Source: a candidate division WOR-3 bacterium (lineage in GTDB: Bacteria; Hydrothermota; Tepidihabitantia; Tepidihabitantales; JAOUPE01). Taken from it: a stretch of 64,000 nucleotides of DNA. Shown in pieces: positions 38,368-46,894 of the stretch (positions within the stretch are counted from its first letter, which is position 1; every line of letters begins with the position of its first letter). The DNA lies in the NCBI GenBank assembly GCA_039801565.1, contig JBDRUX010000001.1, positions 32,001 to 96,000 on the forward strand, read 5' to 3'. The notes under the pieces are model-generated. The model was not told the origin of the DNA, did no database searches, and saw only the letters and a program-made list of their open reading frames with translations. Made by a program: the position numbers and the translations under genes.

Positions 38368-40032
38368 TTACTCCTTTTGCTCTTCACCGGTCAATCTTTT
38401 ATATTTTAAGAATGCCTTTAATCCGTCATAAGCCAGAATAATTGCCGCAACGAATAAGACCAGTCCAATTATCCCAGCAAAATAATTACCGATAATTGAA
38501 CTGGTGGACAATCCTTTTCCGGTTACATCCAATCTCGTTATCGCCTGGCGTAAAACTGAAATACTTGTATAAATTAAAGCACTCATTGTTGTCACATACA
38601 TAAATATCATTGGGTAAAAGGTAAAACCGGTGGGTTTCTTTTGGCTAACCAGCCAGACCGAGGCAATCAGTAAGGCAAGGCTTGCCATCAATTGATTGGC
38701 TGAACCGAAAAGAACCCAGATATAATTAAAAGTCCCGGTATAGACCAGGACAAAAGATAAGATTAAGGCAATCAAAGTCCCCAAGATCGGATTTCTTAAA
38801 GCGGGTATCTTTTTGCCCAAAAGTTCATTGGTCGCAATCCGCATAAAACGAACTACCAGATGTAAAATCGTGATTGCCAAAACAACAATCATCACCGGTC
38901 CATAAGCGTTACCCCAAGTCTTAGGCAAACCGATATAACTAAATATTTCACCCATCCCTTGCCCGAATAGGGTATGCCAGGCACCTTTAGCGGTAGTGAC
39001 ACTGACGATTATCAAGGCGATTAAGGCGAGTATCATCTCAAGAAACATCGCACCGGCAGTGACAACCCGAGTATCGGTATCCTTTTCCAATTGCCGAGAA
39101 GTGCCTGTGGAAGAAACATTACTATGCCAACCTGAAATCGCGCCGCAGGCAATCGTCACAAATAGCATTGGCCAAAGCGGCAGCCCATCAGCATTAAAAC
39201 TGGTGAAGGCCGGGGCTTTGAAATTAGGATGACCGATGATTATTCCTAAGATTGTGCCAATCATCCCGAATAGGATAATATAAAAACCGAGATAATTGAC
39301 CGGTTGGACAAAGACCCAGATTGGTAAGACCGAGCCCAAAAAAGAGAAAAGCAAGGCAAAAATTAACCAGAGCATCTTATTTGCTTCTGGACTGGCTAAG
39401 GCGATTTGGATATGACTGCCGAAAAATAACGCAACATAAAAGATAACAAGCCCGATAATCGTAACCAGAATTAGATTGAATCTAACATAATAGATTAGAA
39501 AACCGACAATCACACCAGCGATGCCAAGAAAGATTAGCGAAAAGGGGATATTGGGGTTATTAGCCATAAAAGTGGCTACCACATTGGCAAAGGCAGCAGC
39601 AATTAGTAAGAGATAGAAATAGATAAAAGAGAGTAAAATGATTCGGGTGCGGGGCGAGATTAGAGAGTAAGATATTCCGCCAAAGGTCTTGCCGTCGTTA
39701 CGCATTGAGACGATTGCGCTCGTATAATCCTGAATCCAACCGATGAAAAATGTCCCTAAAAGAATCCAGATTAATCCGGGTAGCCAGCCCCATTTGATAG
39801 CGATGATTGGACCAAGCACCGGTGCTGCCCCAGCGATTGATTTGAACTGATAACCGAAAAGGATATTCTTTGAGGTTGGCATAAAATCAACCCCATCAGC
39901 ATAAAGTCGGGCTGGAGTCGCTCGTTTCGGGTCGGTCTGGATTACTTTTTTGTCATAATATTTGGCATAAATTTGGAACCCAAGATAATATACTATTATA
40001 CCAAGGATAATCACAACTACTGAATTCATCAT
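38368..40032 (-). CDS. cstA: Carbon starvation protein A family transporter
   Basis: TPA...DGVDF, F.SIAGAAPVLGPI, WGWLP, FVTIACGAISGWH, WVLFGSANQL. Confidence 0.92.
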   Translation of the reverse strand: MMNSVVVIILGIIVYYLGFQIYAKYYDKKVIQTDPKRATPARLYADGVDFMPTSKNILFGYQFKSIAGAAPVLGPIIAIKWGWLPGLIWILLGTFFIGWIQDYTSAIVSMRNDGKTFGGISYSLISPRTRIILLSFIYFYLLLIAAAFANVVATFMANNPNIPFSLIFLGIAGVIVGFLIYYVRFNLILVTIIGLVIFYVALFFGSHIQIALASPEANKMLWLIFALLFSFLGSVLPIWVFVQPVNYLGFYIILFGMIGTILGIIIGHPNFKAPAFTSFNADGLPLWPMLFVTIACGAISGWHSNVSSTGTSRQLEKDTDTRVVTAGAMFLEMILALIALIIVSVTTAKGAWHTLFGQGMGEIFSYIGLPKTWGNAYGPVMIVVLAITILHLVVRFMRIATNELLGKKIPALRNPILGTLIALILSFVLVYTGTFNYIWVLFGSANQLMASLALLIASVWLVSQKKPTGFTFYPMIFMYVTTMSALIYTSISVLRQAITRLDVTGKGLSTSSIIGNYFAGIIGLVLFVAAIILAYDGLKAFLKYKRLTGEEQKE

Positions 40033-40269
40033 TTAGAATTCTATAAATTTTTGTCCAAAAGTCAATCCACCCGAGTAAATCAAGTTGCTATTTTTCTTAT
40101 CTTCACAATGAGAAAGGTCATCTTAAAATGAAGATTTGTATTTTGTGCGTGGTCAATAATTGAGTATCCAAGGTGATTAATCATCTTTTGAGGACCGCTC
40201 TTTGACAATTTGGTTTGTGTCTAATAAACCACTGCAACTCGTTAAAAAACTCCAACATCTTAACTTTCA

Positions 40270-40345
40270 ATCAAAGGAGCAAAGCCCCTTTAAAACTCCA
40301 ATTCTTTTCTTAAATCCGAGGAGATGAGGGGTTTCCCCTCATCCA
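40270..40345 (-). repeat. REP-like double-hairpin repeat (copy 3, inverted)
   Basis: Minus strand GATGAGGGGAAACCCCTCATC...GGAGTTTTAAAGGGGCTTTGCTCCTTTGA. Confidence 0.65.
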
Positions 40346-40873
40346 CAAACTTGAAAGTTATCATTAGAATCAAAAGCAATATCGCCTATGACTTTCTTTA
40401 CCTTCACATTGGGATGGAGTTACTTAAATATTGAGTAATCACCGAAGAAAATTGCTGAGTCTTGGATTCGTTACCTGAAACTACTTCGACGGCGATAGGA
40501 AATGAGGAGGCTTTTACGCTAACCAAAATGAATCCCTTCATCACTATGAGCTCAATATGATTGGTTTTGGTTAGGGCAAAGATTTAAGTGACGAAGCTGT
40601 GGAAGAGTCGAAAGATTTTATCGTCTTTGCGGAGGTTCTTTTCGATAAAGAAAGTATTAGGTATGGGCAGGGGTTTTGAAATGTCTCACAGAAAATGAGA
40701 AAAAAGTGACAGACAAATCGGCGAAGCCGATTTAGAAAGAGAAAAAGAAAATTCCTTAAGAATTCGTTTCTTCTTTTAAACTTATTATACTCATTTAAAT
40801 TTCCACGACTAATAGGGGACTACCAGAGCTAGTGGCTTATTTTATAATCTTTCATAAAGTTTTTGACAGTACC
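40345..40873 (-). mobile_element. Decayed DDE transposase remnant with terminal repeat and a nested IS3-like end
   Basis: Broken frames FPIAVEVVSGNE... and VKKVIGDIAFDSNDN; terminus GGTACTGTCAAAAACTTTATGAAAGA (40873..40848); TGAAATGTCTCACAGAAAATGAGA at 40677 resembles the 13991 end. Confidence 0.55.
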
Positions 40874-40914
40874 TTTAATTTGATAAAATCCGGCAAGCTT
40901 AATACAAACGAAAT

Positions 40915-40947
40915 CCCCTGCTTCCCGCCCGGAGCGGAAAGCAGGGG
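40915..40947 (-). terminator. Intrinsic terminator after the repeat-peptide gene
   Basis: CCCCTGCTT...AAGCAGGGG long hairpin followed on the minus strand by ATTTCGTTT. Confidence 0.75.
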
Positions 40948-41018
40948 TAAAGGATGGCTCCTGCTTATGCCTTCGATTTATTCATTAGCGAAAAGCAGAT
41001 AGTGCGCCAACTTTAGCT

Positions 41019-41300
41019 TCAAGTGCTAATAGTCGGTGGAACCGGTTTCGGTGGCTGAGGAATACCATCCGGTGGCACCGGCTTCGGTGGTTGCGGAATA
41101 CCATCAGCAAAAATCAGAGGAGGTACGGGTTTAGGAGGTTGGGGAATACCATCGGTGTAAAGCCCCGGTGGAACCGGTTTCGGTGGCTGAGGAATACCAT
41201 CCGGTGGCACCGGCTTCGGTGGTTGCGGAATACCATCAGCAATCACTGCGAAGACAGTGATCAGGAGCACAATCCATAAAAGCGCGGTAGTATGTCGCAC
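41019..41300 (-). CDS. Secreted precursor with five DGIPQPPKPVPP repeats (93 aa)
   Basis: AGGAGG then GTG 41300; MRHTTALLWIVLLITVFAVIA signal peptide; repeats vary only at synonymous sites; downstream terminator. The ORF track starts at ATG 41321. Confidence 0.88.
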   Translation of the reverse strand: MRHTTALLWIVLLITVFAVIADGIPQPPKPVPPDGIPQPPKPVPPGLYTDGIPQPPKPVPPLIFADGIPQPPKPVPPDGIPQPPKPVPPTIST

Positions 41301-41487
41301 AGAGCCTCCTTTCTTGGGCATACGCCCATTATTATTAATATCATTTCTAATTCCACCCGGTACTAATTTATAAGATGTTAATATTACAATTCTTAAAAAA
41401 ATAATGCAAATTTTTTAATTCTAACAATGAAAATAAAATTGTCGCACCGCTCAAAAAGTTTTATAAGTTTTGTATTATCAGTTAATT

Positions 41488-44400
41488 TTAAGAACTCTGG
41501 AAGTCTTCTTTATTGATATTATAACGTCGGAGCAATCGTTGAATTTGTCGCCGATGGGTGGAGAGCATTTGAGCAGCACGACTCACATTGCCTTGGGTGG
41601 CTTTGAGTGCTTCAATTACTTGTTCCCTCTCCAAACTTTTCTTTTGACCTTTCTCAATTTTCATCGTCTTTGCAAAATTAACAATTTTCGGACCGAGATT
41701 TTCTAAACTGATTTTTCGCTTTTGCGCCATTATCACTGCTCGTTCGATTACATTTTGCAGTTCTCGGACATTACCTGGCCAGGGATATTCGGTAAGAATT
41801 TGGGGAATGTTATCTTCAAAACCCAGAATCGGCTTATTGAGTTGTTTCGCATACCGTTTTAAAAAATATCCGGCTAATAGCATAATATCGCTTTTCCGCT
41901 CTCTTAACGGTGGCACCTGAATTGTTACAACATTCAAGCGATAATAAAGGTCTTCGCGAAACCGATTAGCTTTAACTTCTTCTTCAAGATTTTTGTTAGT
42001 GGCACAAATCAGTCGCACATCTACTCTTCTCGGTTCAGTTTCTCCCACCCGTCGAATAATCTTGTCCTCCAAGACCTCTAAAAGTTTTGCTTGGATACTT
42101 AATGAGGTATTGGCAATCTCATCCATAAAAATTGTACCATGTTCAGCAATTTCGAATAAGCCTTCTTTGTCCCGAATCGCTCCGGTAAAAGCACCTTTGC
42201 AATGCCCAAATAGTTCGGATTCAAATAGTGTTTCAGGCAATGTGCCGCAGTTGATTGAAACAAATTTGTTGGCACGTCGGTTACTATTGGCATGAATTAA
42301 TCGAGCTAATACCCCTTTACCTGAACCAGTCTCACCTAATAATAGCACAGTACAATCAGTTGGAGCTATCTGTTCGATTATCGAATAGACATCCTTTATC
42401 GCTTTAGAACGTCCTAAAAAATAGCCAGTTACCGCATCGGTCAAAATATCCTCCCGCAGCGCGGAAAAATCCTCTTGCATCTTCTTGAAAGCAAAAGAGC
42501 GGTCAATAGTGGCAGCAAGAAGATTGGCTACCGAGATGAGTAAATTTTTGTCTTCTTCGACAAACACATTGGGATTGATTCGGGAATCAAGATAAATTGT
42601 CCCGATAACTTTATCATCAATCCGCAATGGTACACAGACTAAAGAACGAATTTTATTTAATACCACACTATTAGAATTAACAAACCTTGGGTCCGATAAA
42701 GCATCAGCGCAAATTATCGGTTCCGCACGTTTTTTAACCTGACGAATCACAGTTCGCGAAATTGTATGTGCATCTTCTAAAGTGGTGTGGTCAACATTAC
42801 GCGCCGCCACCGGGAATAACTTATCCCCTTGAATTAAGAAAAGAAGACCGCGCTCGGCCTGGGTTACATCAATGATTAAATCTAATAACCGGTCAGCAAA
42901 ATCCTCTTTCTCTAAGTCAAGATTAATTAATTCACTTAATTCATAGAAGACTTTTAAATATTCGCCACGCTCCCGCCCTTTTAATTTATGGGTTGCTTCA
43001 AGTTGACTAATATGATTTAACATATATCTCACCCTTTCTTGTTCAACTTTCGCTCCTAAACTTGTAAAAATTGTCTCAGCCTCTTTTAAATCATCCAATA
43101 CCCGGGTAAGTTCCTGTTCCGATAATGGCTTGTAAGTAATTGGTAGGGGCTCGCCTTGGTTATAAGTTTTAGGTGCAGTAAGAAGTAACAGGCTTGCCTG
43201 GGCTTGGTAATAAAGCGATTTTGCCATTTCATATTTTGCACCTAAGCTCCGAAGAATCTCAATACTTCGATTCAATTCTTCTTTCCCATCATCCGTAAAA
43301 CCAAGGGCATGTTTAGCTAATCCTCGCCACCGTAATAAAAGGGAGTATAGTCTCGGATTAGCATTATATGCTTGACCTTCTGCTGCTGGTAAAGTTAATA
43401 AATTCTGAGCTCGTTCACAGGTGGTTAAACACTTAGACCAATCGGCTTCAGCCGCCCGTATCCCAGCTGCAGTTAAAAGCATTTCAATCAATTTCTGTTT
43501 ATTTCCTTTCGCATAAATTCTTTGCACATTAAGGGCAAGGGCAAGAGATTTAATTGCTGAATCTACTTGATCGCGCATCAAGTGTAATTTCGCCCAAGCT
43601 AAGTAAATTTGACCCAAAATTTGTTGATTTTTGTTCTGTTTGGTCAAATTTTCTGCTTCTTTAAGCAAAGGTTCAGCATCAATGAAGTCGCCTTTTTTCG
43701 TAAATAGATTAGCCAGATTAATTAGTCCGATGACCAACCCATTATCGTCCCTAATATTTTGCCGAATTTCGATATCCTTTTGGTAATAAGCGGTTGCTTT
43801 TTGCCAGTCCCCCATCTCTTCTAAGATAATACCTAGGTTACACAATGTATCACCCAATCCGGCTGAATCACCAATTTTTTCGCAGAGTTCTTTTGCTTCT
43901 TTAAAATATTCTAAGGCTTGATGCCAATCGCCAGTTTCAAAATCAACCAAACCAAGACCCTGAATGGTACGAATCCGAAAGTAAACATCGCTCAATTCCC
44001 AAAGTGGTGAGGATAGGATGGAAGAATAAGTTTCTTTTGCCTTATTTAATTCCCCTTTCTGCCAGTAGATTGTCGCTAAGAACTGACCAATTTTTCCCCG
44101 GAGATTGGACTTGGAAGAAATCCAGTTTGATTCTACTTCTTCTCGCGCAGGGGCTGGTTTCTCATATAATGCAAGACCACGATTCGCATATTCTAAGGCC
44201 AAATCAATCTCCCCTTTATACCAGGCAAGGGCACTCATTCCATAAAGAGTTCGTGCCTTTAGGTCAACCAACGATTCGGAATTTTTTAAATCAATCGTTT
44301 TTAAGGCTAAAGAATAAAACTCCTCGGCTTTCTTAAAATCACCTTTAGCGGTTAACGACCAGCCGATGTCATTCCAAAGGGTTATTGTTCCAACTGCGTC

Positions 44401-46830
44401 TTTTTCTTTAAGGGTGGTGAGTGCTTGTTTGAAATAACTGATTGATTCATCTACTTTACCTTGTTTCTGATAGATTAGTCCTAATCGGCGCAAAACACTG
44501 GCTAATAGCGAAACATAGTTGGGTTCTCTTCTTAAGGTATTGTCGGAAAAGAGAATACCCAGTCCTTGAGTATAAATGTCAATGGCATCGGCAAAGCGTC
44601 CCGTGATTTCCCGCAAGCGCCCAACAGCTTCAATTAACTCAATCCGTTCTCGGGCTGATACAAAGTTGGATGATAAGGCAAGCGCAGTTTCATAAAAACC
44701 AAGTGCCAATTCTGTCAGATTTAATCTTTTTGCTTTGGCTCCTGCCTCACGACAATAGTTAAAAGCTCGATCTTTTATCCCAGCCTGGGTGTAGTGGTGA
44801 GCTAAATCAAAAAGGTAACGATCTTGTTCCCGCGGGTAAAGCAATTCGATTGCCAGGGCAACTGAGCGATGATAATCCCGTCTTTCTTGCACACTAATTC
44901 CTTCGGTAATAATCGCTTCTAAGGTCTTGGAGGATAAGACAAAACCATCCGAATCGGGTAGGGGGCGCAGTAAATTAATCGCCCGTAACCTTGAAAAAAT
45001 TGAATAGAGGAGATGTTCCTCATAACCTAAAACCGCACGAACAAAATCAACTGTGAAAGGAGTTCCAGTAATCGCTCCCACCTTTAAAACTTCTAATTCT
45101 TCTCGAGTGAGAGTACTCAGTCGTTCTTTAATCAGCGAGTAGACAGTGTCTGGTAATTTGAAATCGCCTGATGTCAATCGGTTACGGTCTAATCTCCAAC
45201 GACCGTATTCCAATTGAATGACCTTGCTGGCCAAAAGGGAATAAAGCGATTCAATCACAAATAGTGGATTACCGCCGGTACTGGCAAAAAGCCAGGTGCT
45301 CAACTCGGCGCTTGATGGATGAGGACCAAGAATTGCTTCCACTAAAAGTTGAGTCTCCTCTTGAGTTAGTGGACCAAGCGTAATGTGTTGAAAAAATTCT
45401 TTTCCCAAAAATTCTTTACTGAGTTCTAAAATTCTCCGCTCATTCAAACTGCTCACCACCACAAAAATTTTCTCCTTCTCAATGCTAAATCCTAAGAATC
45501 GGAGAAATTCGAGACTCATTGAATCAAATAATTCAAAATTATCAATCAGCAATAAAAGGCTGTGTTCAACCTTTGATGAATTAGCTAACGCTTTGAGCTT
45601 TTTTATTATTTCTTCAAATAATTCATATTTTGTTGCCTCGTCTTCCTGCTTTGCTACAATGTTTTTGATATCTTTACCATCATAAATTGATAAATTAGCT
45701 AAAATGTCTTCAATTAAAGATGGGGGGCGAGCACCTAATGCAGTATGAGCCGATTGTAAAATTGAAACACCTTCTAATTTAGCGAGAAATTTAAATTCTT
45801 GTAAAAGCCTACTTTTACCCACGCCGCGTTCCCCGGTGATAAAAACTAATTGTCCATTTGAACCTTTGGCTGATTCTAACCGGTTTCTAAGAACGTTTAA
45901 CTCATTTTCTCGGCCAATAAAACTCGAAGCTTGAAGAGAAAAAACACCTTCTCCGCTTCGCCGAATGCCAATAGTCGGTATTTTTTCCTTTAAAGATTCT
46001 GGTATTATATCACTTATCGTCTCGATAACTTCTAAGGCAGAAATTGGACGCCGAAAAGCATCCCGTGCGAGTAAACGCATACAAAGGTTAGAAAACTTCT
46101 CGGGGATTTTGCTATCAATCTCACTTGGTGGCGCGAAGTTGGAATAATATTGAGTCCGTAGCCAATTCCGTAAATCTGTTTCGGTTGACGGTCCCCGACC
46201 GGTTAGGATTTCATAAATTACCATACCTAATGAGTATAGGTCAGCCCGACCATCCGCTTCGGTTCCCTTAAAAATTTCTGGTGCAATGTAACCAAGTGTT
46301 CCGCGTGGTATCTGATTGGAAGAAGAGAAATAATTAGCAAACCCAAAATCTAATAATTTGGCTCTTGCCTTGTTACCGGTGTCAGAGTCGATCGCCGTAT
46401 TGACCAGGATATTCTGAGGTTTCAAATCACAATGAATTAATCCCTGGCTGTGAATAGTATCTAAGGCATACAATATCTCAATCAACACTAATAATAAATC
46501 TTCGGAATATCCTTTAAAAAATTTGTTAATCGGCGCACCTGGAAAATATTCCATTGTAAAGAATGGCTTTCTTTCAGTTATCCCAAAATCGAAAGGTGCG
46601 ACAATATTCGGATGATTAAAGCGACTGAGCATGAAAAATTCTTGATTTAATTGATTCTCAATTTCTTTTGTCGCAGGTTCTCGGGAGATTTTTAGGGCTA
46701 CGATGCGGGCACCAACCAAATCCTTTGTTTTGTAAACCTCAGTTATTTCACCACCACCCAGATAATCTAAAACCTGATAACGGCCGGCAATTAAACTGCC
46801 GGTTTTAAAAGCACCCTCTTTTTGATTCAT
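41488..46830 (-). CDS. Ser/Thr kinase-STAND-type ATPase-TPR-GAF-sigma54 activator-Fis HTH fusion
   Basis: HCDLKPQN, DFG, GTLGYIAPE; FIGRENEL, GERGVGKS, TGGNPLF; long TPR array; GAF (AERGLLFL...RSLVCVPL); GETGSGKG, GAFTGA, WPGNVREL, GNVSRAAQML. Confidence 0.93.
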   Translation of the reverse strand: MNQKEGAFKTGSLIAGRYQVLDYLGGGEITEVYKTKDLVGARIVALKISREPATKEIENQLNQEFFMLSRFNHPNIVAPFDFGITERKPFFTMEYFPGAPINKFFKGYSEDLLLVLIEILYALDTIHSQGLIHCDLKPQNILVNTAIDSDTGNKARAKLLDFGFANYFSSSNQIPRGTLGYIAPEIFKGTEADGRADLYSLGMVIYEILTGRGPSTETDLRNWLRTQYYSNFAPPSEIDSKIPEKFSNLCMRLLARDAFRRPISALEVIETISDIIPESLKEKIPTIGIRRSGEGVFSLQASSFIGRENELNVLRNRLESAKGSNGQLVFITGERGVGKSRLLQEFKFLAKLEGVSILQSAHTALGARPPSLIEDILANLSIYDGKDIKNIVAKQEDEATKYELFEEIIKKLKALANSSKVEHSLLLLIDNFELFDSMSLEFLRFLGFSIEKEKIFVVVSSLNERRILELSKEFLGKEFFQHITLGPLTQEETQLLVEAILGPHPSSAELSTWLFASTGGNPLFVIESLYSLLASKVIQLEYGRWRLDRNRLTSGDFKLPDTVYSLIKERLSTLTREELEVLKVGAITGTPFTVDFVRAVLGYEEHLLYSIFSRLRAINLLRPLPDSDGFVLSSKTLEAIITEGISVQERRDYHRSVALAIELLYPREQDRYLFDLAHHYTQAGIKDRAFNYCREAGAKAKRLNLTELALGFYETALALSSNFVSARERIELIEAVGRLREITGRFADAIDIYTQGLGILFSDNTLRREPNYVSLLASVLRRLGLIYQKQGKVDESISYFKQALTTLKEKDAVGTITLWNDIGWSLTAKGDFKKAEEFYSLALKTIDLKNSESLVDLKARTLYGMSALAWYKGEIDLALEYANRGLALYEKPAPAREEVESNWISSKSNLRGKIGQFLATIYWQKGELNKAKETYSSILSSPLWELSDVYFRIRTIQGLGLVDFETGDWHQALEYFKEAKELCEKIGDSAGLGDTLCNLGIILEEMGDWQKATAYYQKDIEIRQNIRDDNGLVIGLINLANLFTKKGDFIDAEPLLKEAENLTKQNKNQQILGQIYLAWAKLHLMRDQVDSAIKSLALALNVQRIYAKGNKQKLIEMLLTAAGIRAAEADWSKCLTTCERAQNLLTLPAAEGQAYNANPRLYSLLLRWRGLAKHALGFTDDGKEELNRSIEILRSLGAKYEMAKSLYYQAQASLLLLTAPKTYNQGEPLPITYKPLSEQELTRVLDDLKEAETIFTSLGAKVEQERVRYMLNHISQLEATHKLKGRERGEYLKVFYELSELINLDLEKEDFADRLLDLIIDVTQAERGLLFLIQGDKLFPVAARNVDHTTLEDAHTISRTVIRQVKKRAEPIICADALSDPRFVNSNSVVLNKIRSLVCVPLRIDDKVIGTIYLDSRINPNVFVEEDKNLLISVANLLAATIDRSFAFKKMQEDFSALREDILTDAVTGYFLGRSKAIKDVYSIIEQIAPTDCTVLLLGETGSGKGVLARLIHANSNRRANKFVSINCGTLPETLFESELFGHCKGAFTGAIRDKEGLFEIAEHGTIFMDEIANTSLSIQAKLLEVLEDKIIRRVGETEPRRVDVRLICATNKNLEEEVKANRFREDLYYRLNVVTIQVPPLRERKSDIMLLAGYFLKRYAKQLNKPILGFEDNIPQILTEYPWPGNVRELQNVIERAVIMAQKRKISLENLGPKIVNFAKTMKIEKGQKKSLEREQVIEALKATQGNVSRAAQMLSTHRRQIQRLLRRYNINKEDFQSS

Positions 46831-46874
46831 TCAATAAAATTATACTAAAAATTTTATATTTGTCAACAATAAAG

Positions 46875-46894
46875 TGCGACAGATGTTTGTCGCA
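46875..46894. promoter_or_regulatory. Palindromic operator TGCGACA-N6-TGTCGCA
   Basis: Perfect 7-bp inverted repeat just upstream of TTGACA(46866-61)-N16-TATAAT(46844-39) of the kinase/activator gene. Confidence 0.65.

Follow-up and report, generated by a model that had tools for sequence, protein, structure and literature searches.

The stretch of DNA analysed here, referred to as the window, comprises 64,000 nucleotides (nt) from a candidate division WOR-3 bacterium, uncultured and of hot-spring origin (GenBank assembly GCA_039801565.1, contig JBDRUX010000001.1, positions 32,001 to 96,000), and the present account concerns two co-oriented genes within it, one encoding a regulator of 1780 residues and the other, which begins 187 nt beyond the regulator stop codon, encoding a small proline-rich peptide precursor. 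Together they form a conserved and hitherto undescribed gene pair that may constitute a peptide-signalling circuit. In what follows, G000 denotes the genome of the window, G001, G006 and similar labels denote related genomes, and f1, f2 and so on denote families. The features of the pair, in window coordinates, are these:

41488..46830, minus strand: regulator gene, 1780 aa, defined by open reading frame (ORF) and Pfam (Hanks kinase, STAND NTPase, TPR sensor, GAF, sigma-54 AAA+ with GAFTGA, Fis-type helix-turn-helix)
46839..46866, minus strand: sigma-70-type promoter of the regulator, TTGACA-16-TATAAT, matching 12/12 consensus positions
46875..46894, minus strand: palindrome TGCGACA-N6-TGTCGCA directly 5' of the regulator -35 element, a candidate regulator-binding site or, alternatively, the terminator of tRNA-Lys
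41440..41446, minus strand: TGCGACA in the regulator-peptide spacer, 91 nt upstream of the -24 element, a candidate upstream activating site
41340..41355, minus strand: sigma-54-like element TGGAAT-N5-ATGAT, 39 nt before the GTG, of the atypical form GG-N10-GA and positioned as the canonical promoters of relatives are
41315..41328, minus strand: small GGGC/GCCC hairpin immediately 5' of the Shine-Dalgarno sequence, found too in G001 and G007
41305..41311, minus strand: Shine-Dalgarno sequence AAGGAGG, 5 nt before the GTG and identical in G001
41019..41300, minus strand: peptide ORF, 93 aa, GTG start, a proline-rich multi-unit precursor
41238..41300, minus strand: predicted signal peptide, 21 codons from the GTG, ending V-I-A, as read from the sequence
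41034..41237, minus strand: five DGIPQPPKPVPP units, at 41202-41237, 41166-41201, 41118-41153, 41070-41105 and 41034-41069
41019..41033, minus strand: C-terminal TIST and TGA stop codon, from the translation
40915..40947, minus strand: intrinsic terminator of the peptide transcript, a hairpin with a 15-bp stem following the peptide ORF

The architecture of the regulator was assigned with Pfam. An N-terminal protein kinase domain (Pkinase, residues 18-262, 141.5 bits) is followed by a STAND-type NTPase (AAA_16/nSTAND1, residues ~300-497, with 86.8 bits for AAA_16 and 38.2 bits for nSTAND1), a long TPR array (TPR_12, 130.6 bits; TPR_MalT, 78.4 bits against a cut-off of 45), a GAF domain (residues 1309-1442), a sigma-54 activator domain (Sigma54_activat, PF00158, residues 1472-1638, 234.7 bits, together with AAA_lid_14) and a helix-turn-helix (HTH_8, residues 1733-1770, 31 bits). 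The kinase-STAND-TPR-GAF-sigma-54-helix-turn-helix gene described in a first-pass annotation of the window is borne out by these placements and by the ORF coordinates. The translation holds the VALK lysine and a Walker B segment along with HCDLKPQN, DFG, APE, GERGVGKS, GETGSGKG and GAFTGA, which we take to be the kinase, Walker A and sigma-54 motifs, and an alignment of 39 regulator homologues shows no or hardly any variation in the catalytic motifs of the kinase, in the two Walker A loops or in GAFTGA. Judged from these residues, the Hanks kinase is intact in its catalytic positions. The order of the six domains is identical in all four distant homologues tested (families f10, f14, f17 and f43), and full-length homologues were found in many families of the phylum. 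Protein-database homologues with an organism name are given as 'candidate division WOR-3' and bear generic annotations only, while some sources label homologues 'Nif-specific regulatory protein'.

The peptide gene, which had first been described as a 93-aa ORF with a ribosome-binding site, a Sec-type signal peptide, five identical units and its own terminator 187 bp downstream of the regulator gene, agrees with that description in coordinates and sequence. An in-frame ATG at 41321 lacks a Shine-Dalgarno sequence and is missing in the closest relative, G001, and the 93-codon reading from the GTG is preferred for these reasons. The N-terminus is predicted, from its sequence, to be a Sec-type signal with a basic N-terminus, a 16-residue hydrophobic core and a V-I-A|D cleavage site. 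What follows is built mainly from a proline-rich unit of 12 residues, DGIPQPPKPVPP, present in five identical copies, of which units 1-2 and 4-5 adjoin without a spacer, whereas units 2 and 3 are separated by GLYT and units 3 and 4 by LIFA. At the DNA level, unit 1 is exactly identical to unit 4 and unit 2 to unit 5, from which it follows that a 72-nt block (units 1-2) was recently duplicated to give units 4-5. Units 1, 2 and 3 differ pairwise at 4 to 8 of 36 bases, and because all of these differences are synonymous third-position changes, they point to selection on the peptide sequence rather than to gene conversion or chance. DNA of the window is also present in runs labelled as hot-spring metagenomes. 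One metagenome contig, from run X2 (depth 3.5), joins position 41033 to 41166 and so skips 132 nt, that is, three units and both spacers; this may reflect a two-unit allele in a sister population or collapse of a 77-nt exact repeat by the assembler, and is taken as a weak hint.

Conservation of the pair and forms of the peptide gene

A search of 41 related genomes yielded 20 loci of the order (window included) with a full-length regulator orthologue of 42-67% identity, and at all 20 a small proline-rich ORF with a strong Shine-Dalgarno sequence lies on the same strand, 187-559 nt downstream of the regulator. A terminator follows the small ORF directly in most loci, and the next genes vary by lineage (SmpB, radical SAM, CstA and others). 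A phylum-wide search with the STAND-TPR part alone matched 104 of 272 genomes at E <= 1e-30; 47 further homologues were listed, and downstream DNA was taken for 40 of them, giving with the order set 60 loci, of which 55 had enough DNA to evaluate. The small ORF was defined by a Shine-Dalgarno sequence, a start codon, a length of 10-135 codons, at least five prolines in some 12-residue window and a position no more than 900 nt downstream. On the strand of the regulator gene such an ORF was found in 48 of the 55 loci; the opposite strand gave 0/55, and composition-matched shuffles averaged 0.84 of 55 (maximum 3). The first-pass annotation had proposed scanning homologues for linked downstream peptide ORFs and would have taken their absence as a refutation; the outcome clearly goes the other way, and the scan shows the linkage to be robust, phylum-wide and not due to chance. 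Conservation is seen at the amino-acid level, non-proline residues included, across genomes of 29-64% G+C.

The small gene takes several forms. In 27 of the 48 positive loci it consists of a methionine plus one unit, without a signal, over 16-21 aa (for example MDGIPIPPRPGPLGPP, MDGIVPILPPPRPAPPVK and MFGVFVPPPPLPVPPK); in 14 a signal peptide, followed in some cases by a pro-region, stands ahead of one proline-rich unit at the C-terminus (45-67 aa in total); in six, including the window, a signal peptide precedes 2-5 units; and in the remaining locus, in G074, there are two units and no clear signal. The unit is accordingly cytoplasmic in 27 loci and exported in 20. The sole two database relatives of the window precursor carry five units (one degenerate) and three units, and among close relatives the number of units ranges from 2 to 5, the units being conserved and the spacers varying. 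Because other loci have genes made up of just one unit, it is quite probably the single unit (12 residues here) that is the functional entity, and the window holds a conserved micropeptide gene in a derived state, exported and with multiple copies of the unit. The earlier proposal that the precursor is cut into 12-mers is in this respect strengthened, as the orthologues with a methionine and one unit back the unit as the entity, whereas cleavage itself stands as a reasonable prediction: the spacers and the ends of the signals share the pattern hydrophobic-[FYI]-A|[DG], which suggests a signal peptidase-like cut. An alternative route to multiplying the unit is seen in G220 (locus L062), where two tandem single-unit genes of 20 and 19 codons, each with its own Shine-Dalgarno sequence and a TTG start, follow one sigma-54 promoter.

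A regulator tree (C-terminal 540 residues, quick maximum-likelihood inference in IQ-TREE, SH-aLRT support) places signal-bearing single-copy forms in every lineage outside this order. Leaderless forms are restricted to the order, the signal-less two-unit gene of G074 excepted, and their units are conserved in three families. Multi-copy exported forms occur at two places, namely family f1, to which this genome belongs, and a nested f2 clade (support 98), within which one leaderless gene is in turn nested (support 99). Exported and leaderless forms are interleaved in the tree, and the classes of peptide follow the clades. The ancestral gene was probably exported and single-copy, export having been lost or regained more than once, and the pairing with a dedicated regulator is vertically inherited across the phylum.

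Promoters and candidate binding sites

The search for sigma-54 promoters covered the interval from -100 to -15 relative to the small-ORF start and required GG-N10-GC together with a match to no fewer than 8 of the 11 consensus positions. A canonical -24/-12 promoter of this kind precedes the small ORF in 33 of the 48 loci, as against a shuffle mean of 0.76 and maximum of 4, and sigma-54 itself is encoded in G000 (PF04552, 181.9 bits, contig C94). The hexamer TGCGAC/GTCGCA was counted 36 times over 4.8 kb of spacer DNA (7.5/kb) and 89 times over 105 kb of DNA coding for the regulators (0.85/kb), an enrichment of ~9-fold in the spacers. It lies at -91 to -93 relative to the -24 element in 9/20 loci, and paired hexamers are found 50-130 nt before the start of the regulator itself in most of the 20 loci. 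The palindromic arrangement TGCGACA-N6-TGTCGCA is unique within the 2.3-Mb genome of the window. When hexamer and canonical promoter were combined into a composite pattern with a spacing of 70-100 nt, it was present once per genome, at the peptide locus, in three of five genomes and twice per genome in the other two, with 0 in reversed-pattern controls. In G006 (98% complete), one of ten canonical sigma-54 promoters has a hexamer within 260 nt upstream, and this is the peptide promoter.

The simplest reading of these patterns, and a likely one, is that the regulator binds TGCGACA-type sites, autoregulates and activates one monocistronic peptide gene, its regulon looking as if restricted to that gene. 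That the two genes form a module, with the peptide gene as the target of the regulator, is judged very probable. The first-pass annotation had offered, as an alternative to peptide sensing, that the peptide is the output of the regulator, and this has become its best-supported part, given the 33/48 promoters and the hexamer common to both promoter regions.

In this lineage it seems to be general for a small sigma-54-dependent gene to follow an activator. At locus L027 (G024:C8:386615-389710), a paralogous 912-aa sigma-54 activator has downstream of it a TGCGACA site of its own, the canonical promoter TGGCAC-N5-TTGCA and ORFs for two small membrane proteins of 66 and 71 aa.

A feedback model and its alternatives

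The above data allow a model to be framed for the circuit. It proposes that the cytoplasmic regulator would bind TGCGACA-type sites and activate, from a -24/-12 promoter, the dedicated monocistronic gene immediately downstream, whose product would be a short proline-rich peptide unit, a 12-mer in this genome. Here the gene has grown to encode five units in one Sec-exported precursor, and cuts behind the hydrophobic-alanine spacers, which resemble a signal-peptidase site, probably set the units free. The unit would then most likely act back on the STAND-TPR sensor of the regulator, closing a feedback loop that in exporting lineages might run via the outside or the periplasm, and so report density or confinement, and that in leaderless lineages might be private. 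Several indirect points favour the feedback step. No other conserved partner is seen for the STAND-TPR sensor; its TPRs are, among PDB sequence matches, nearest to those of LGN/Pins and kinesin light chain, which bind peptides; the conservation of leaderless units in three families implies that the site of action is reachable from the cytoplasm, where the regulator sits; and in the regulator tree exported and leaderless forms take each other's place. The complete chain, feedback included, is put forward as a tentative account, and that the peptide feeds back on this particular regulator is a possibility we rate no higher.

The following points weigh against the model. The canonical promoter test fails in 15 of the 48 loci, this genome among them: five f43 loci and G060 have no canonical match, four f4 loci share a non-GC -12 element, and in G007, G214, G212 and G074 the promoter falls below the score threshold. 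The -12 element of the window is GA and not GC, although the genome has 29 canonical matches elsewhere (control 6), and the window promoter may be weak or read differently. In seven of the 55 evaluable loci (G218, G252, G254, G174, G256, G257 and G160) no small ORF was found by the above definition, G254 having instead a downstream 261-aa protein that begins with a signal and a proline-rich stretch. Import of an exported unit also presents a difficulty. G000 has six Omp85-family matches and hence an outer membrane, and no SBP_bac_5 (PF00496), SbmA/BacA or PTR2 (POT) importer was found in this 94% complete genome; an Opp route in the manner of RRNPP systems would be unavailable here, with the caveat that absence from an incomplete genome is not proof. 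Opp-type binding proteins occur in 8/14 signal-form, 0/6 multi-copy and 1/27 leaderless genomes, a distribution that is confounded by phylogeny but rules out Opp as a general requirement. G000 has a single CstA gene, located ~1 kb beyond the peptide gene on its downstream side, and no other peptide-transporter-like gene was found; CstA was considered as a linked importer and rejected, as the other multi-copy loci do not have it beside the module. Contact between the peptide and the regulator is itself something that we infer. Finally, if the regulon consists of the peptide gene only, then the peptide must also act on something else.

As a separate observation on import, PF00496 is present in only two sampled genomes of the order (f1-f5) and universal in f13 and f14 (47/47). 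The order that lost Opp is also the order in which leaderless peptide genes arose, a single phylogenetic coincidence that is suggestive at most.

An alternate scenario, nearly as likely as feedback and likewise possible but short of probable, is that the peptide is solely an effector: the regulator would integrate signals through its kinase, STAND-TPR and GAF domains and switch on a proline-rich peptide destined for a different target, which could be a component of the envelope or periplasm, the receptor of another cell or, in leaderless lineages, a cytoplasmic protein, with no feedback. The promoter and site evidence is in keeping with this scenario, as it shows output and is silent on input, and so are the seemingly narrow regulon and the failure to find an importer in G000. 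In addition, lineage-specific genes that follow the peptide gene could be the real receptors where they occur. A conserved 117-aa ORF follows it in all four f43 loci with enough DNA (L081, L082, L084 and L086), and in G197 and G155 (L090 and L092; families f14 and f13) an ORF of 71-87 aa is followed by a membrane protein of ~425 aa. However, these extra partner genes have no homologue in the genome of the window, and a pure effector would leave the large TPR sensor without a ligand. Further, with the unit cytoplasmic in 27 loci and exported in 20, one extracytoplasmic target could not serve both forms without an additional exporter.

A different reading of the window gene is that its product is never processed, the mature chain of 72 residues remaining in one piece and serving, in the periplasm or at the surface, as an adhesin or polyproline spacer whose repeats are structural. 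The direct abutment of units 1-2 and 4-5 would accord with such a repeat protein, as would the fact that no protease is linked to the locus and cleavage is only predicted. However, orthologues consist of a methionine and a single unit (16-21 aa), in distant forms a signal or pro-region precedes a lone C-terminal unit, close relatives differ in how many units they carry (2 to 5), and purifying selection acts on the units while the spacers vary, so that an unprocessed chain appears improbable. Less probable still is that the act of translation, or the RNA, is the function, whether through a leader peptide or polyproline stalling (responding to EF-P, proline or Sec flux) or as a sigma-54-dependent small RNA. 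PPP and PPG-type motifs are present, and a short monocistronic transcript from a sigma-54 promoter beside an activator recalls LuxO-Qrr and GlrR-GlmY, in which a small-RNA gene adjoins its sigma-54 activator. However, the terminator directly after the ORF and the differing downstream genes leave nothing in cis to control, Rfam matches at the locus are limited to tRNA, and conservation at the amino-acid level over the wide range of G+C, non-proline residues included, goes along with a strong Shine-Dalgarno sequence everywhere. Least probable is a bacteriocin-like, proline-rich antimicrobial peptide in the manner of apidaecin or oncocin, for although the precursor is multi-copy and some relatives have an LPRPRP-type motif resembling the oncocin core, the unit has one Asp and one Lys and a net charge of about zero where apidaecin- and oncocin-type peptides are strongly cationic, the locus has no linked genes for immunity or export, a leaderless form would arise within the very cell that produces it, and a dedicated regulator accompanies the peptide gene across the phylum by vertical descent.

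Returning to the feedback model, its furthest-reaching version holds that the STAND-TPR sensor directly binds the proline-rich unit whose synthesis the regulator induces. This would amount to a peptide-pheromone system native to a diderm candidate phylum, ancestrally exported and re-imported for quorum or confinement sensing, in which the present genome would obtain a five-fold signal per transcript and sister lineages would repeatedly have short-circuited the loop to a private, leaderless, self-activating switch. In this full form the proposal is regarded as possible but less likely than not.

Related systems and the surroundings of the locus

Among the closest parallels are the RRNPP(A) systems of Bacillota and their phages (Rap-Phr, NprR-NprX, PlcR-PapR, PrgX, AimR-AimP, Rgg-SHP/ComR-ComS), which likewise place a cytoplasmic TPR regulator beside a small gene for an exported propeptide, and in which, as in the single-copy precursors described above, the active part lies at the C-terminal end. 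PlcR and ComR-type receptors also control the promoter of their own peptide gene. There are also differences. The host here is a diderm candidate phylum; the regulator has an N-terminal kinase, STAND, GAF, sigma-54 AAA+ and a C-terminal HTH_8 in place of an N-terminal helix-turn-helix or Rap-type domain; Opp was not found in G000; and the unit is proline-rich, 12-20 aa long and in many lineages leaderless. PF18768 (RNPP_C) scores 33.9 bits over the whole regulator vs. a cut-off of 26.5, with no individual stretch passing, and no RRNPP receptor is among 46 PDB sequence matches of the STAND-TPR part. The RRNPP layout invoked in the original reading can be kept insofar as a TPR regulator stands next to a secreted-peptide gene (leaderless in 27 relatives), but neither the receptor architecture nor the Opp route of those systems is found here. 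Tandem pheromone duplicates within one propeptide are documented for RRNPP systems (PMC11343458), and PMC10075063 describes such systems for Firmicutes.

Among sigma-54 activators, the pair resembles PspF-PspA and ZraR-ZraP in that an enhancer-binding protein has as its main target a neighbouring sigma-54-dependent gene for a small product. In both of those cases the product acts back on the system, and ZraP is periplasmic. However, PspA and ZraP are folded proteins of >100 aa with effector roles of their own, whereas a peptide of 12-20 aa is at issue here and the activator carries a kinase and STAND-TPR part. LuxO-Qrr and GlrR-GlmY share with the pair a sigma-54 activator beside a tiny, separately terminated, sigma-54-dependent gene; their products are non-coding, while coding is backed here by the Shine-Dalgarno sequence, the amino-acid conservation and the synonymous-only variation. 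The N-terminal 1,300 residues of the regulator (Pkinase-AAA_16-MalT-like TPR) recall the STAND proteins MalT and PknK, MalT being a protein whose C-terminal repeat sensor binds the inducer, but they are fused here to a complete GAF, sigma-54 AAA+ and helix-turn-helix module. Over its last 490 residues the regulator is matched by the NCBIfam models nifA and NorR, in each case below the equivalog cut-off (374.2 vs. 528.85 bits for nifA and 367.8 vs. 476 bits for NorR), and the protein differs from NifA and NorR in being no equivalog, in lacking nif or nor context and in having 1,290 extra N-terminal residues. That no system with this combination had been described, as initially supposed, agrees with the literature searched, including PMC12542636 and PMC12316311, in which no description of the regulator-peptide pair was found, subscription journals lying outside its coverage.

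The pair would be of interest on several counts. It is small and self-contained, with one regulator, one promoter and a synthesizable peptide, and is directly testable. For the phylum as a whole, one strain, sy37, has been brought into pure culture (PMC12285271). Orphan STAND-TPR regulators, a large class, would gain a concrete candidate ligand, and genes of 16-20 codons that are missed by annotation can evidently be the only target of a 1,780-residue regulator. To our knowledge, peptide autoinduction is treated as a Gram-positive trait, a view that would be broadened by a conserved cassette of regulator and peptide made of unrelated components (STAND, kinase, sigma-54) in a candidate phylum with an outer membrane. 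The series of leaderless, single-copy exported and multi-copy exported forms would moreover offer a natural evolutionary experiment in public vs. private signalling.

With regard to the surroundings, CstA lies ~1 kb downstream of the pair, and tRNA-Lys and a Cys/Met pyridoxal-phosphate (PLP) enzyme lie upstream; with these as neighbours, no peptide-modifying enzyme is adjacent, just as had been noted from the letters. In genera g7, g3 and g14 a convergent radical SAM gene was considered as a peptide maturase and rejected, its matches being generic only and below every cut-off. A nitrilase-family CN-hydrolase gene stands directly upstream of the regulator in 15 of the 20 order loci (L005-L014 and L017-L021; families f2, f3 and f4) and is divergent from it in 14 of these 15, its place being taken in family f1 (the window and G001) by tRNA-Lys(UUU) and the Cys/Met PLP enzyme.

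In the ~900-nt gap between the peptide terminator and cstA (40031-40915) there is no ORF that appears credible, and the DNA is composed of dispersed repeats in a mosaic. Fragments of 43-51 nt from the gap are found again on 15 or more further contigs of this genome, contig C12:9142-10270 resembles three of the pieces with 80-92% identity, and segment 40836-40879 has many different flanks in metagenome contigs. Between the peptide stop codon and the terminator, a stretch of 25 nt (40950-40974, minus strand) is nearly identical in G001, the surrounding 3' region differing. The opposite strand has a 20-codon ORF there (40954-41016, plus strand) with an SD-like AAGGA, the first residues of which are kept in G001, and the stretch may be an element of the 3' untranslated region or part of an antisense micro-ORF.

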